Counted from the first letter of the stretch, positions 5,283 to 19,452 are shown. The stretch is 64,000 bases of DNA from a virus (IMGVR_UViG_3300032053_000043:11104-75103); one strand, 5' to 3'. Translations and numbers: made by a program. Notes: generated by a model from the sequence alone, not told the origin.

Positions 5283-5627
5283 CTATGGCCGAGCCGCGGT
5301 AGGAGGCGGCAACATCACCGGCGGCGAAGGGGGATTGCGGCAAGCGCGCAGGGCCCCACTCAGAGTATCGACCATGCCCTCCAGCTCTGCGATGCGCCGC
5401 CGTGCCGCATCCTCACGCATCAGTGCCGCGCCGTAGGCGGCGAGAACTTCCTGCTCGGTGATAGCAGGCTGCCACGCGGGGCGTTGTGGGGCCGGCGCCT
5501 GAACCACAGGCGTCTTATTGCTGGACGGCGGTTTCTCTGGCCGGCCCGGTTCCTGCGCGGGTGAACTCACCGCGGAGATGCAGAGGGCGCAGAGAAGAAA
5601 AATGAATGGCCGCATCGTCATCAGCAT
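5283..5627 (-). CDS. Small exported coiled-coil protein
   Basis: Signal peptide MRPFIFLLCALCISAVSSPA|QE, short coiled coil, Pro-rich ends. Confidence 0.6.
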   Translation of the reverse strand: MLMTMRPFIFLLCALCISAVSSPAQEPGRPEKPPSSNKTPVVQAPAPQRPAWQPAITEQEVLAAYGAALMREDAARRRIAELEGMVDTLSGALRACRNPPSPPVMLPPPTAARP

Positions 5628-8356
5628 CAGCAGGTTCCTCCTGTCTTAAGCCCGCCGGTAAACGTGATCGTGCAGGTTCCTGTGCCGGCCGCGTCGCGCA
5701 CCGTGATCGTCAGGCTTTGCCCGCCCGATCCGTTCGCCGTGAACGTTGTGGCCGCGAATTGCCCGGCAGTGTCCAGCCAGGCATATTCCGTGCCGCGCAG
5801 CCGCATACTAAATCGAGTTGCACCGCTGCCGGCATGGTCTATGTACACGGTCTGCCAGTAATTATCGGCGCCGAATTTCGGCCCGAGAGCGGCATTGCTG
5901 TAGAGGCCGAAATACGGATTCTGCGCGCCAGTGCCGCTCACGCCGGCACGCAGGGCCTCGATCGAGCTGTTATCCCCGCCTGTGACCATGAAAATTCCTG
6001 CAGGCGCGCTGGCCAGTGGGACGGATGAGGTAAACCCGCCGGTCAGACTTGTCAGCCCCGCAACGCCCAGCGTATTGCGCAGAGTGGTCGGACCATTCAC
6101 GGCCAGGGTAGCAAATGTCGGGTTGCCGGTCTCGCTACTGCTGAGTAGCACGGCGGAAACGTCGTCAACGTAGAAGTCATTGGTGCCGGTGAACTCGCCG
6201 AACGCTAGACGCTGCCCGGTGCCGCCGAAATCATCCAGGCGCACAATGAGCTGGAAATCGTTCCACTCGCCGGTGGTGATTGCAGCGCGGGCGGTGCGGA
6301 AGTCGTAAAAATTGTCTGTCTGCGCGCCGTTCCACACAGACCCCCAGCCGAAGTGCACGGTCCCTGTCTCGACATATACGGAGGCCCGCAGTAGTGCATA
6401 CCCGGACGACGGCAGACCCATCAGCGTTTGGTAGATCGCGGCGTTCGTGCAGTGGTAGGAATAAGTTCCCGTCCGTGATCGCGTGGCGCTCTTGACACAT
6501 GACCCATATTGGCTTGTCCAACCCGCCGTGGTGTCCTCGAAACTAGGTTCCAGGACGTAGTTGCGAATCAACCGAACCTCACCGAAGACACAAGCCTCGG
6601 TGGTGCTATTGCAGCGCAACGCGATCCGCCACGAACCAGCAGCAAGCGCAGCCGTCGTGGTCCAGCGGTAGGGCGGCCGGGCATTGCCGTCATTGGGCGC
6701 GATCAACCAGCCAGAATCGACCAGCACGGCATCGGTATCACTGCGGCGAATTTGGAAACCGGCGACGGCATTTTCCGTGGTCGCCGTGTAAAGTGCCGAG
6801 AAATAGGCGCTGGCGCTGATGGTGTCGGCGATGTCCTGTGTCACCTCGCAGGGCGCCGACGAGCAGACCAGCCGCAGGTAGCGGTCACCGGTAATATGAT
6901 TGAGCCATGCCGTTTTGGTGCGGGTGGCGCCGGCGCCCGCCGTCCAGGCCGTCAGGCCCGCGGATTCCATATCCCAATCGGAAACAATCGAGGGGTCGAG
7001 GGCCTGCTCCAGTATGGGGAATTTGTTGCGCAACGCGCATTGGCCCTGGCCGAATTTCGTATAGATGGAGCTGGCGCAGGTTTGATCACGGACCACGTTG
7101 AAAAAACCAGCGTCGTTGATCCCCGCCAGTGATTGACTGTAGAGGAAGTGCGATTGCCTCACCTGCGGTCCCAGATAGGCGTCAGCGGTTCCCTGGTGGT
7201 ACGAATAGCCGCCAAGCACGTTCAGGCCCTGGGTATCTTCGGCTCGGATGTTGACCGCACTGTTGGTCTCGAAGTGGTCCCCGACCGATGTATAGAGCTG
7301 GAACTCTGCGCGTTTCTGCGTGGGTTGAATCAGCAACCCGTAGGTATTGAAGTTGTGAAGATTGCCGGAGCTGAAAACATCCTGTGTGGTTGAGTCGCTG
7401 AGTTTCACGCCGGCGACATCGTTATTCAGGAAGAACCCGTCGCGCAGGCTGAGCCGATTCACGCCGGTCATGAGATGCAATCCAGTGCCTTTGCACTGAT
7501 AGACGCCTAGGCGATCCAGTACCATCGTTTCATCCGAGGCTGACTCGCCGACCAGTACGCAGTCATGAGCAACCGTTTGGTTGGCCTTGTTGCCGTCGAA
7601 CAGCAGAGCGAACATGTTCACCCGCGATTTCGCGCCCGCGCCATAGGTGAACATGCTGCTGTTCGCGCCATCGCCCAATGACAGCGTGGTCGAAAACAGT
7701 CCCGTCCCGCGGATGGTGCGGTTCGACCCGCTGCCGTAGGTGCCGGAGAGATCAATGGCGCTGCCGAGTTTGAATGTCCCACCGGGGATGAAGGTATCGC
7801 CGCGGCCGGTCGGCAGGGACATGGCGGCAGCCGTGATTGCCGCGCTCGAGTCCATGGTGCCGCTAGAATCCCCGCCCCACCATCGGGGATCGGTCGTGCC
7901 GTCCACCTCGACTGTCCCGGTGCCGCTGAAAATCCGGTGTCCATCCGGGTTATCGACCGAGCCAGCGGCGAGAACCAAAACCCTCGGGGAATTTACAACG
8001 AAGCTGCTGCCGGGGCCGAAAGTGACCGTGATGTTCCCTGGCACCGTCAGATCGACGGCCAGGGTATAGGCCGCCGCCAGATGGAGACGCGCTGGGGCGG
8101 TTATGCCGCTGAAGATGTCGGCCGCAATGGTCGCCGCGCCCAGGATACCGCTGGCATCGCATTCGCCGCCGCCCTGGGCCTGGACGCCGGCCAAGCAGGC
8201 GGCGATCTGTGCCGCTGGCGTGCCGCCATAGAGCGCGGCGCGGTGGACCTTGGTCGCCGGGTCGACGGGCAGCGCCGTGGCCTGGCCGCCCTGGGCAAAG
8301 CAGAAGGCAGTAGGCAGAAGGCAGACGGCGGCGAGTAGAACAATTAAGCGTTGCAT
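5627..8356 (-). CDS. Tailspike-like protein: signal peptide, pectate-lyase-like right-handed beta-helix, carbohydrate-binding-module-like domains
   Basis: MQRLIVLLAAVCLLPTAFCFA|Q; DSSAAITAA...FIPGGTF...TIRGTG...FDGNKANQ beta-helix start; two EPSFE/DWDME..GW CBM-like units. Confidence 0.75.
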   Translation of the reverse strand: MQRLIVLLAAVCLLPTAFCFAQGGQATALPVDPATKVHRAALYGGTPAAQIAACLAGVQAQGGGECDASGILGAATIAADIFSGITAPARLHLAAAYTLAVDLTVPGNITVTFGPGSSFVVNSPRVLVLAAGSVDNPDGHRIFSGTGTVEVDGTTDPRWWGGDSSGTMDSSAAITAAAMSLPTGRGDTFIPGGTFKLGSAIDLSGTYGSGSNRTIRGTGLFSTTLSLGDGANSSMFTYGAGAKSRVNMFALLFDGNKANQTVAHDCVLVGESASDETMVLDRLGVYQCKGTGLHLMTGVNRLSLRDGFFLNNDVAGVKLSDSTTQDVFSSGNLHNFNTYGLLIQPTQKRAEFQLYTSVGDHFETNSAVNIRAEDTQGLNVLGGYSYHQGTADAYLGPQVRQSHFLYSQSLAGINDAGFFNVVRDQTCASSIYTKFGQGQCALRNKFPILEQALDPSIVSDWDMESAGLTAWTAGAGATRTKTAWLNHITGDRYLRLVCSSAPCEVTQDIADTISASAYFSALYTATTENAVAGFQIRRSDTDAVLVDSGWLIAPNDGNARPPYRWTTTAALAAGSWRIALRCNSTTEACVFGEVRLIRNYVLEPSFEDTTAGWTSQYGSCVKSATRSRTGTYSYHCTNAAIYQTLMGLPSSGYALLRASVYVETGTVHFGWGSVWNGAQTDNFYDFRTARAAITTGEWNDFQLIVRLDDFGGTGQRLAFGEFTGTNDFYVDDVSAVLLSSSETGNPTFATLAVNGPTTLRNTLGVAGLTSLTGGFTSSVPLASAPAGIFMVTGGDNSSIEALRAGVSGTGAQNPYFGLYSNAALGPKFGADNYWQTVYIDHAGSGATRFSMRLRGTEYAWLDTAGQFAATTFTANGSGGQSLTITVRDAAGTGTCTITFTGGLKTGGTC

Positions 8357-19300: not shown

Positions 19301-19452
19301 TTGTGGTAAGCTACGCTTGTACCGATTTGCTTTTGAGCACTCGAAGAGGCCGCGCCGGTGGCGGTGCCGACGTAGGAGAAATACATCGCGTAGTCATCGG
19401 CGAACGTTGGAAAAGCCAAAAGAAAAACGACGAACAGAAGTCTCTTAAACAT
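16372..19452 (-). CDS. Exported tail fibre / adhesin-like protein
   Basis: MFKRLLFVVFLLAFPTFA|DD; ITLSTPQDIATTSTPQF and GNVGIGTTAP..KLHV fibre motifs; Thr/Gly/Ser-rich; 10 Cys. Confidence 0.8.
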   Translation of the reverse strand: MFKRLLFVVFLLAFPTFADDYAMYFSYVGTATGAASSSAQKQIGTSVAYHKLAWNKSGTVSKCEVVVEQSATGTSGWTDLVTAQTCTSNGTSTIFGASANYVRITFSTPVTGTGSVTASYSGYINLPLTDPPLFASWTAKAFVYSNALKQAVTTAAPTDGQILIGKTGDVPVLGSVAGTTNQITSTPGAGTITLSTPQDIATTSTPQFARLGLGIAADATYLLNVVKSIPVDVAADIDAAYFAINRTDTTNANYVMTAVEGVARSRGADESITLRGGHFRTYTDNVGYPGATARSSFGVDASVRTAADNVAEQWTAFTGVRSYMAPYFTGGTVGNLNNFHAFWGYNESTTNAVTHGFFLSDAGTTGWTYGLSMLNATIGTAEIEMSSGETIDNKTNGMFNFTGALRYGTSASYSDRSAFSGTQQGISTFLTSDMSLSSVLRGVEGRVKSTGGDHASGGYLVGGRFHSLQDTGSTAYDQVWGSNSTTEVKVGTAVAVYGAVGDALIDTGTTIGQAYGTFGTLRVNGTVTFNGYPGSSGIFGAFGSSYLSTGVTLSTSQIDGAVGALLNMETGRRKANAAFAAILGNALSESSAGAGAAFKAYIFNTSAPFDYGLDLSLVGMGRTSYGVADVRLSHGDTISNPSSGTISIPGNVGIGTTAPAEKLHVYNGNSRIDYGHLRFISEATPGAPTSNAPTAGGSCTAGTHVFVTTFVTANGETQYGAASAAQTCGANATVPLSAIPTGTSDVTTGRNVCASKAGTTTPLYQVGASPTIADNSTTTYDFVTADGSLTVGCNATDSTTGGIWVDGTRVIKIDPVTGYVGIGTMLGYQPNTQFHVVGISTLWGPVYIPLSYDLSWWNGSAVRSAADGYLTFRKWGAASGFTMLQFGGTTASYPALKTSAVELESRLADDSGGAPIRASAYNTTTNCADGTATPADCGTAAAGAVIISATATAVVVNTTAVTATSRIMVTRDNSLGTELSVTCNTQSDLVLGTARVTAKTAATSFTIAIDVAPTTDPACYTYLIFN

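Follow-up and report, generated by a model that had tools for sequence, protein, structure and literature searches.

Sec-type leaders on fibre-like late proteins of two SU10/T7-like podoviruses suggest a possible periplasmic route to the virion

The stretch analyzed here (IMGVR_UViG_3300032053_000043:11104-75103; 64,000 nucleotides, hereafter the window) comes from one viral contig of 75,103 bp, of which it forms the final 64 kb. A long late operon on the minus strand extends from about 36.6 kb to the start of the window. In this operon, five genes in two clusters encode proteins with N-terminal leaders of the kind cut by signal peptidase I (SPI) after passage through the Sec pathway, and the three larger products are probable or candidate tail fibres or spikes. 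An earlier note, made from the sequence alone, had drawn attention to these three open reading frames (ORFs) and their N-termini, and all three were present on the minus strand as described there.

In the first cluster, the gene at 16372..19452 (P0003; this and the following genes are on the minus strand) encodes a mosaic fibre protein of 1026 amino acids, recognized by its ORF, Shine-Dalgarno (SD) sequence, homologues and paired cysteines. Its leader, MFKRLLFVVFLLAFPTFA (19399..19452), is predicted to be cleaved before DDYA and is followed by a conserved N-terminal jelly-roll domain spanning residues 19 to about 126 (19075..19398; hereafter the N-domain), which contains the invariant residues Cys63 and Cys86 and was delimited by a profile search, two alignments (A3 and A6), an AlphaFold2 (AF2) model and a fold search. 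The 302-residue fibre is encoded at 15072..15980, with its leader at 15930-15980, a Cys-containing N-terminal segment, a region of phage tail repeats (PTR) at about 15525-15710, and a tip like tumour necrosis factor (TNF) at 15075-15536. Between these two fibre genes lies a gene for a 127-residue, leader-bearing helical protein (15980..16363; leader MKRLLMVLVVSLVLVPIAAA before Gln) that is weakly similar to the LTXXQ (Spy/CpxP) family. The second cluster consists of a gene for a 909-residue protein (P0001; 5627..8356), located after a nozzle gene and with the leader MQRLIVLLAAVCLLPTAFCFA (8294-8356) before QGGQ, and of a gene for a 114-residue, leader-bearing protein (5283..5627), whose start overlaps the P0001 stop and whose product is made of a Pro-rich linker, a coiled coil and a Pro-rich tail.

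The two clusters belong to different genomes. The stretch with 50% GC content contains a portal and an adaptor, both of the SU10 type, a major capsid protein of the Phage_capsid_4 family, a terminase RNaseH domain of the T7 type and a Hydrolase_2 endolysin, and, because of these parts recognized by Pfam, it is assigned to a T7/SU10-type podovirus, phage B. Below about 15 kb, the GC content climbs to 0.60-0.65, and the second set of adaptor and nozzle genes found there defines phage A. The alignment of the window with itself showed that its last 176 bases (63825-64000) repeat 15072-15247, with the identity beginning exactly at the stop codon of the 302-residue fibre gene; this is a truncated second copy of the 3' end of a gene of that type (63825..64000, minus strand), placed at the contig end and adjoining the phage B ejection genes. 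In the related contigs L003 and L004, the order is fibre gene, 563-residue gene and 863-residue gene. From the end repeat and this gene order, phage B therefore looks like a unit of about 48.75 kb (15072-63824), joined in the contig to part of the 63%-GC phage A, either by recombination or as an assembly chimera formed through the shared fibre gene. Under either account, the 909-residue and 1026-residue genes come from different genomes. No near-identical DNA was found among GenBank phages.

Leaders were called with our own heuristic for the n-, h- and c-regions, applied to 93 ORFs of the 75-kb contig. Eight ORFs were flagged, five of which adjoin in the two clusters (114 and 909 residues; 302, 127 and 1026 residues); the sixth is a 127-residue ORF at 37623-38006, and the other two look spurious. 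The capsid, adaptor and nozzle genes were not flagged, as the earlier note had maintained, and neither were the portal and ejection ORFs. The start codons of the five clustered genes were also inspected. The SD sequence GGAGGTGAG precedes the ATG of the 909-residue gene and GAGGT that of the 1026-residue gene, both 5-9 nucleotides upstream; GAGGTG and AGGAGG precede the 127-residue and 114-residue genes, respectively; and the ATG of the 302-residue gene, at 15980, overlaps the preceding stop codon (TAATG) and is used by the homologues too. The next in-frame Met is at residue 168 in the 909-residue protein and at residue 23 in the 1026-residue protein, where it is not conserved among relatives. 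True starts downstream of the leaders were thus ruled out by the SD positions, the lack of a conserved internal Met and the conservation of the leaders.

The five leaders are built alike. After the initial Met, positive charges are found at R3 (909 residues), R2 (302), K3/R4 (1026), K2/R3 (127) and R6 (114); the uncharged part that follows is 13-18 residues long and contains a hydrophobic core of about 10-12 residues, which stops at a Pro, Thr or Ser. At the predicted sites, positions -3 and -1 are taken by small residues (CFA-Q, LQA-D, TFA-D, AAA-Q and SPA-Q, where the hyphen marks the cut). The predicted +1 residue is Gln in the 909-, 127- and 114-residue proteins and Asp in the 1026- and 302-residue proteins. 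None of the five leaders contains a lipobox or a twin-arginine motif, and Pfam gave no match at the C-termini to the sorting domain of the type IX secretion system (T9SS; Por_Secre_tail), the only hit being a weak K1-lyase_C match. Judged by sequence, the short cores, their Pro, Thr or Ser ends and the small residues at -3 and -1 give these leaders the shape of a cleavable peptide and not of a membrane span. If the N-termini were instead retained, they would act as signal anchors tethering the fibres to the inner membrane, or as N-terminal helices buried in the phage tail, with the proteins staying on the cytoplasmic side. We consider this improbable, since cores of this length, followed by Pro or Gly and the small residues, are too short to span a membrane. 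The 114-residue protein is a point in its favor, because it resembles an accessory exported protein or an i-spanin, and its likeness to the latter is as strong as that to a secreted chaperone; it had no Pfam or PHROG match.

When homologues were aligned, a check proposed in the earlier note, the leader proved to be conserved as a feature while its sequence drifts. Six relatives from sediment (P0005-P0010) match P0003 from residue 1 to about 220, leader included, and then diverge completely. For P0008 and P0009, the identity over the first 135 residues is 68% and 90%, and for P0021 it is 48%; these proteins have leaders of different sequence and the same kind, as do the P0003 relatives at 48-76% identity. 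Three unrelated leaders occur among close relatives of the 302-residue gene, whose bodies are 85-97% identical: MRILLPVLVFVALSLQA before Asp, MRLLLPILILATAVHG before Gln and MKQVVFIIAFLAATCCYG before Gln. The same applies to the 909-residue protein: its relatives P0031 and P0032 have the leader and about 130 residues in common and then differ, one of them containing a Pfam Beta_helix, and the leader of P0031 has diverged. Leaders that drift freely in front of a conserved domain are not expected of a retained N-terminus. A possible case of such a fibre body without leader is P0036, encoded in a 2-kb metagenome contig, which is 85-87% identical to the 302-residue fibre and has the four N-terminal cysteines; its called N-terminus, MAQARPCADGDPIRY..., lacks a leader, so that either the start was mis-called or leaderless and leader-bearing versions coexist.

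Next, the first 135 residues of P0003 were used as a profile and searched against 1.84 billion representative proteins. It returned 654 clusters with the limit set at E ≤ 1e-3, of which 390 reached E ≤ 1e-10, and the N-domain of P0003 founds a family that had not been described before. Among the best 150 matches, the domain starts within the first 36 residues in all but three, and the family proteins are 108-1507 amino acids long behind one N-domain. By the same heuristic, a leader stands at the start of 136 of 145 members (P0153-P0297), and these leaders are unrelated to each other in sequence. In an alignment of 98 sequences, Cys63 and Cys86 were the only invariant columns.

Cleavage sites were picked in this family with no regard to the +1 residue, and Gln occupied that position in 86 of the 138 predicted sites (62%). 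According to Bochtler et al. (PMC5837995), such Q-values exceed 48% in more than 99% of Bacteroidetes species, with a mean of 71%, and are mostly below 20% in Chlorobi, Spirochaetes and Chlamydiae. The N-domain family thus follows the Q-rule, a rule that holds for the cleaved SPI substrates of a single group of hosts, and its pattern would only make sense if SPI cuts at these sites. The match to the Bacteroidetes range therefore argues for real processing and for hosts that are probably Bacteroidota in the wide sense, and it is also difficult to reconcile with N-termini that remain uncleaved. Host O-glycosylation was examined as well and discarded: the sequon D[ST][AILVMT] was not enriched in any leader-bearing protein of the window, and the N-domain family held 199 copies against 279 expected.

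A tblastn search with the N-domain gave no match in 50,697 phage records, a pattern scan of 185,579 species genomes found no relative, an absence that is weak evidence, and the Atlas held only unnamed virus-only clusters. Scans of viral contigs with P0003, A2 and P0185 found nothing, and P0192 gave a C-terminal match only. These data bear on the idea that the genes are host-derived cargo (morons), encoding ordinary secreted or surface adhesins that alter the cell during infection or lysogeny and play no part in phage adsorption. The leaders do fit host rules, and some of the co-located leader-bearing proteins of relatives have immunoglobulin (Ig)-like domains (Big_2, He_PIG and ASH-type). Nevertheless, besides the failure to find the N-domain in the species genomes, the contigs that carry it are of phage type and no longer than 50 kb, the genes sit inside a late structural operon and are translationally coupled, the PTR repeats and tip domains are phage-fibre modules, and no integrase was seen in the stretches read. 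An origin as cargo is therefore the least probable of the explanations we considered, and very unlikely.

The cysteines of the leader-bearing proteins were analyzed by their spacing. The ten cysteines that the earlier note had counted in the 1026-residue protein are arranged as five neighbor pairs (p = 6.5e-3 for random placement), and the 14 cysteines of mature P0001 form seven neighbor pairs, 5-22 residues apart (p = 1.4e-4). In the contig and eight related loci, leader-bearing ORFs of at least 150 residues have a median of 1.93% Cys vs 0.85% in the rest (Mann-Whitney p = 1e-4). Some relatives have extreme counts: in the locus L008, three leader-bearing proteins encoded in a row contain 33, 19 and 39 cysteines, and one protein of G001, the complete genome discussed below, contains 40. 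The invariant pair of the N-domain and the pairing seen throughout point to an oxidising compartment, which again would not be expected of proteins that stay on the cytoplasmic side.

The 127-residue protein encoded between the two fibre genes scored 23.7 bits with Pfam LTXXQ, 0.6 bits short of the cut-off of 24.3 (E = 8e-5), and L001 has a leader-bearing, 143-residue gene in the same position. A pattern scan of the species genomes revealed no relatives of this Spy-like gene, which is likewise weak evidence. Taken together, export and cleavage of the leader-bearing proteins are very probable on these sequence data, because the leader is kept across hundreds of diverged homologues, the sites follow the Gln +1 rule, the cysteines are paired, and a Spy/CpxP-like exported gene lies between the fibre genes. 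The proteins would then probably fold in the host periplasm, and not in the cytoplasm where the particle is built.

The fibre nature of the three large proteins was assessed separately. The H-x-H repeats mentioned in the earlier note are present in the 302-residue protein, with HxH at residues 110 and 132, and correspond to Pfam PTR PF12789 (56.7 bits vs a cut-off of 27); the protein also matches PHROG tail families. AF2 modelled its C-terminal 150 residues as a TNF-like jelly roll with a predicted local distance difference test (pLDDT) value above 90. In BFVD, this tip matched tailspike and depolymerase C-termini (KP34, phi15) as well as Flavobacterium phage structural proteins with E-values from 1e-10 to 1e-6, and in the PDB it matched a TNF-like lectin, PRD1 P5 and a Bdellovibrio fibre tip with Z-scores of 8-9; since this is a common arrangement, the PDB matches are weak support for fibre identity. 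Among the 50,697 phage records, only the PTR segment was matched, in Microcystis phage MJing1 and Gordonia phage ChisanaKitsune. In more than 100 homologues of its tip domain, the N-terminus is an ordinary one that lacks a leader, and for this reason the leader is read as a lineage-specific addition to a normal fibre module.

In the 1026-residue protein, the motif GNVGIGT was found at residue 650, as the earlier note had stated, and a variant, GYVGIGT, at residue 818. Its repeat modules are common to long fibre-like proteins, some of which have Peptidase_S74 or Beta_helix domains, and its tip gave a weak K1-lyase_C match (E = 0.025). The 909-residue protein is the weak point. The beta-helix and carbohydrate-binding-module-like domains ascribed to it failed to appear, with no Pfam match even at E ≤ 5 and no PDB sequence match, and its status as a candidate fibre or spike is suggested by its place after the phage A nozzle gene and by its mosaic homologues. 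PDB sequence searches with all three large proteins returned nothing meaningful. A conserved N-terminal module joined to a mosaic distal part is seen in P0005-P0010 compared with P0003, and in P0031 and P0032 compared with P0001, and this combination is a hallmark of proteins that dock on a conserved site of the virion. Thus, of the interpretation put forward in the earlier note, the leaders and the export were supported, and so was the fibre nature of the 302- and 1026-residue proteins by their domains and modules, while for the 909-residue protein only gene position and mosaic homologues could be adduced.

A complete relative was helpful to decide whether such proteins could belong to the particle. 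G001, the record behind L011, has 50,293 bp and is rated 100% complete, and all of its large fibre-like ORFs carry a leader (605 residues, about 613 residues across the contig ends, 573 residues and 1143 residues), while its adaptor, nozzle and three ejection-type ORFs have none. L008 and L012 show the same division between leader-bearing fibre-like genes and leaderless adaptor, nozzle and ejection genes. A receptor-binding protein is indispensable to a phage, and in genomes such as G001 the leader-bearing set makes up nearly all the available candidates for this role. The other support came from Cellulophaga phage phi18:3 (Pachyviridae, NC_021794), a podovirus with a Bacteroidota host, in which three consecutive late proteins of 547-785 residues have textbook leaders: gp085 (MKNKITIIMILMSISFGYS before Gln), gp086 (MKKTIYILSILLLTISGVSA before Gln) and gp087 (MKHTFSIVLFFILSIGLNA before Gln), with sites ending in YS, SA and NA. 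In the record, all three are annotated as structural or tail proteins 'based on experimental MS/MS proteomics analysis', i.e., tandem mass spectrometry (MS/MS). They differ from the window proteins in holding 0, 1 and 3 Cys, and the record does not mention their leaders. By analogy, phi18:3 shows that leader-bearing late proteins can occur with particles, and leaves unsaid the route by which they get there. Joining the virion at lysis is made more plausible by the leaders on all large fibre-like genes of G001 and by the detection of the phi18:3 proteins in virions; from these we infer attachment after lysis.

The structure of the N-domain was then predicted from the 98-sequence alignment (pLDDT 88.8). 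In the AF2 model, the leader is a helix of residues 4-11 that lies outside the domain, a further feature at odds with an N-terminus that is never removed, and is followed by an eight-stranded jelly roll of residues 23-123, in which Cys63 and Cys86 are on neighboring antiparallel strands. Foldseek alone gave weak matches only with the N-domain. In an all-against-all structural search, the top match was the N-domain of XepA from PBSX (PDB 6i56), with a Z-score of 11.9 and a root-mean-square deviation of 2.5 over 102 residues at 14% identity, followed by YomS (Z 10.0) and by the capsid cement proteins of phages KHP40 (Z 9.1) and Pam1 (Z 8.2). The PDB sequence search with P0003 did not return XepA. 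As the fold also resembles capsid cement proteins at Z 8-9, the docking site might be on the head rather than on the tail. In G001, 14367-15059 encodes a stand-alone N-domain of 230 residues with a leader and 8 Cys, right after the major capsid gene, which is the usual place of a decoration protein.

The likeness to XepA is the best argument for the main rival explanation, i.e., that the proteins are exported and never become part of the particle, and that they act once released or while still in the infected cell's envelope. They could bind or cut, from within the periplasm, the receptor that the phage itself uses (nascent polysaccharide or a component of the outer membrane), so that superinfection and the sticking of progeny to debris are blocked; they could serve as free decoys or adhesins; or they could help lysis and egress, as proposed for XepA. 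This protein and SPbeta YomS are encoded by late genes beside tail-fibre and lysis genes, and XepA has an N-terminal beta-sandwich like the N-domain of P0003; it is exported beyond the membrane and is absent from PBSX particles (PMC6834076). XepA also differs from the proteins described here, as it comes from a Gram-positive defective prophage and is a pentameric dumbbell with no fibre body, and the match is at the level of a common jelly roll, a fold for which a Z-score of 12 proves no common function. The more than 100 leaderless tip homologues of the 302-residue protein would fit this explanation as well, as a receptor-binding module could have been turned, in the leader-bearing copy, to a derived function outside the virion. 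In addition, the tips of the Bdellovibrio bacteriovorus fibres Bd2734 and Bd2133 are among the fold matches (8okw, Z 8.1; 8ond, Z 7.1), at the level of the common jelly roll. These are exported, fibre-like mosaic trimers, and bacteria display such fibres made with signal peptides. They differ in being encoded by a bacterium for its own surface and not in a phage late operon.

Other observations, too, weigh against a place for the leader-bearing proteins in the virion. No known virion anchor, such as the N-termini of T7 gp17 or P22 gp9, stood out among the fold matches of the N-domain, which included XepA, the cement proteins and generic jelly rolls. Phage B has leaderless candidates for host recognition (344, 735 and 332 residues, the last weakly NosD-like), G001 has a sole leaderless candidate (a 235-residue ORF), and P0036, if its start was called correctly, would be a fibre with no leader at all. 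The three phi18:3 proteins have no detectable sequence similarity to those of the window, and their detection by MS/MS could reflect co-purifying protein. We know of no tailed phage that exports parts of its virion, and a 2026 preprint (bioRxiv 10.64898/2026.09.13.751334) assumes that tailspikes need no export or signal peptide.

On balance, a role outside the particle is a serious possibility that we nevertheless find rather doubtful. If it were correct, little else would be left in G001 and L008 to serve as receptor-binding protein, and a conserved N-terminal module with swapped distal modules is typical of proteins that dock on virions, where the leader-bearing proteins of phi18:3 were indeed found. 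We thus favor the reading that the products of these genes are the fibres or spikes by which two SU10/T7-like podoviruses recognize their hosts, and that they are made as Sec pre-proteins and attached to the particle after lysis; for this full chain of events, we estimate a probability of roughly 0.45.

Such fibres can be compared with known systems. T7 gp17, P22 gp9 and the fibres or tailspikes of SU10 and KP34 lack a signal peptide, and the cytoplasm is where they fold. The proteins of the window are like them in their place after the nozzle and internal-protein genes, in the conserved N-terminal module with mosaic distal modules and in the PTR repeats; the C-termini of the KP34 and phi15 spikes have a tip fold like that of the 302-residue protein, and the head, adaptor and portal here are of the SU10/T7 type. 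The window proteins differ from them in the leader before the N-terminal module and in the paired cysteines. In filamentous phages, g8p and g3p, the receptor-binding protein included, have Sec signal peptides and form disulfides in the periplasm. Filamentous virion proteins with Sec signal peptides are described in PMC4823517, and these phages differ in being assembled at the membrane and extruded with no lysis, whereas HK97-type heads, a portal and a terminase are found here, and the heads are necessarily assembled in the cytoplasm. Genes of Porphyromonas gingivalis phages with Q-rule signal peptides have been read as an adaptation to host secretion (Matrishin et al. 2023, PMC10367356); those genes encode capsid proteins, spanins and five proteins of unknown function, a modification of the host outer membrane was proposed, and tail fibres were not mentioned. 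Our literature search found no paper on the signal peptides of tailed-phage fibres or on the phi18:3 leaders, and only passing counts in Bacteroides and Porphyromonas phages.

The gene neighborhood was compared in ten IMG/VR loci with the N-domain, which have the phage B head module in common. In most of them, a small leaderless gene is followed by the fibre gene and then by further leader-bearing, Cys-rich genes. The small gene is homologous to that of 92 residues at 20540..20818 (minus strand) in the window, and its homologues stand immediately upstream of the N-domain fibre gene in relatives (synteny in L003, L006, L008, L010, L012 and L013); they are located at 9697-9990 in L008, 9610-9885 in L010, 9635-9946 in L012, 4130-4477 in L013 and 51-323 in L006. 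Genes of this type encode about 90-115 residues with the pattern MAN..G.RP.Y.DTPG..., and in the window a 356-residue gene stands between the 92-residue gene and the fibre gene. Neither Pfam nor PHROG matched the 92-residue gene, the Atlas clusters found for it contain viruses only, and its product could be a docking partner or an export chaperone. The leaderless 735-residue protein of phage B is encoded at 23180-25387 (minus strand), after the nozzle gene; it has three tandem repeats of about 150 residues (...CEE.AS..QT.N.GGPFVDK...KYEDLGQS...) and no family match, and is possibly a tail needle, knob or fibre. The lipobox search returned a single ORF, of 25 codons, at 22063-22140 (minus strand). 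Its lipobox is clean, MKLAPILALFLMLAGC before GKVNALPNS, and the same place in L002 (6752-7381) is taken by a 209-residue lipoprotein gene, so the short ORF looks like a remnant left by a deletion or like a mini-lipoprotein. Exactly at the junction of phages A and B, between the 302-residue fibre gene and the phage A adaptor gene, lies a gene for a homing endonuclease of the GIY-YIG/NUMOD3 type (14239-15075, minus strand).

If the leader-bearing proteins are parts of the particle, the events could be ordered as follows. The leader would take the fibre proteins across the inner membrane through Sec, and SPI would remove it, exposing Gln (909, 127 and 114 residues) or Asp (1026 and 302 residues). 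Folding and the formation of disulfides within domains would take place in the periplasm of a diderm host, probably one of the Bacteroidota, where the co-encoded, Spy-like protein of 127 residues may assist. The fibre proteins would stay in this compartment because they have no lipobox, Tat motif or T9SS C-terminal domain. Heads and tail cores would meanwhile assemble in the cytoplasm, and once holin and endolysin had opened the envelope, the two pools would mix and the fibres would dock via the conserved N-terminal module.

Four elements are new here: the family of the N-domain, marked by an invariant Cys pair and a fold like that of XepA; the Q-rule signature in quantitative form; the linked gene of 92 residues; and G001 as a complete relative. 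They lead us to propose, tentatively and at somewhat less than even odds, that a large lineage of uncultured podoviruses, probably infecting Bacteroidota, builds its particle in two compartments: the whole host-recognition set would be exported, trimmed by SPI, often to an N-terminal Gln that the host cyclises, disulfide-bonded and added at lysis, with the jelly-roll N-domain as the docking module. If this is true, it would be a widespread exception to the assembly of tailed phages wholly in the cytoplasm. Fibres and depolymerases of this kind would need export and disulfides to fold, which would matter for their recombinant production and for the engineering of Bacteroidota phages, and receptor-binding proteins would be overlooked by annotation pipelines in which secreted proteins are set aside as non-structural. 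The leader type and the Q-rule would also help to predict the hosts of metagenomic phages. Should the proteins stay apart from the particle, they would represent a large, unstudied class of phage periplasmic proteins derived from receptor-binding modules, and would be candidates for receptor masking or egress.

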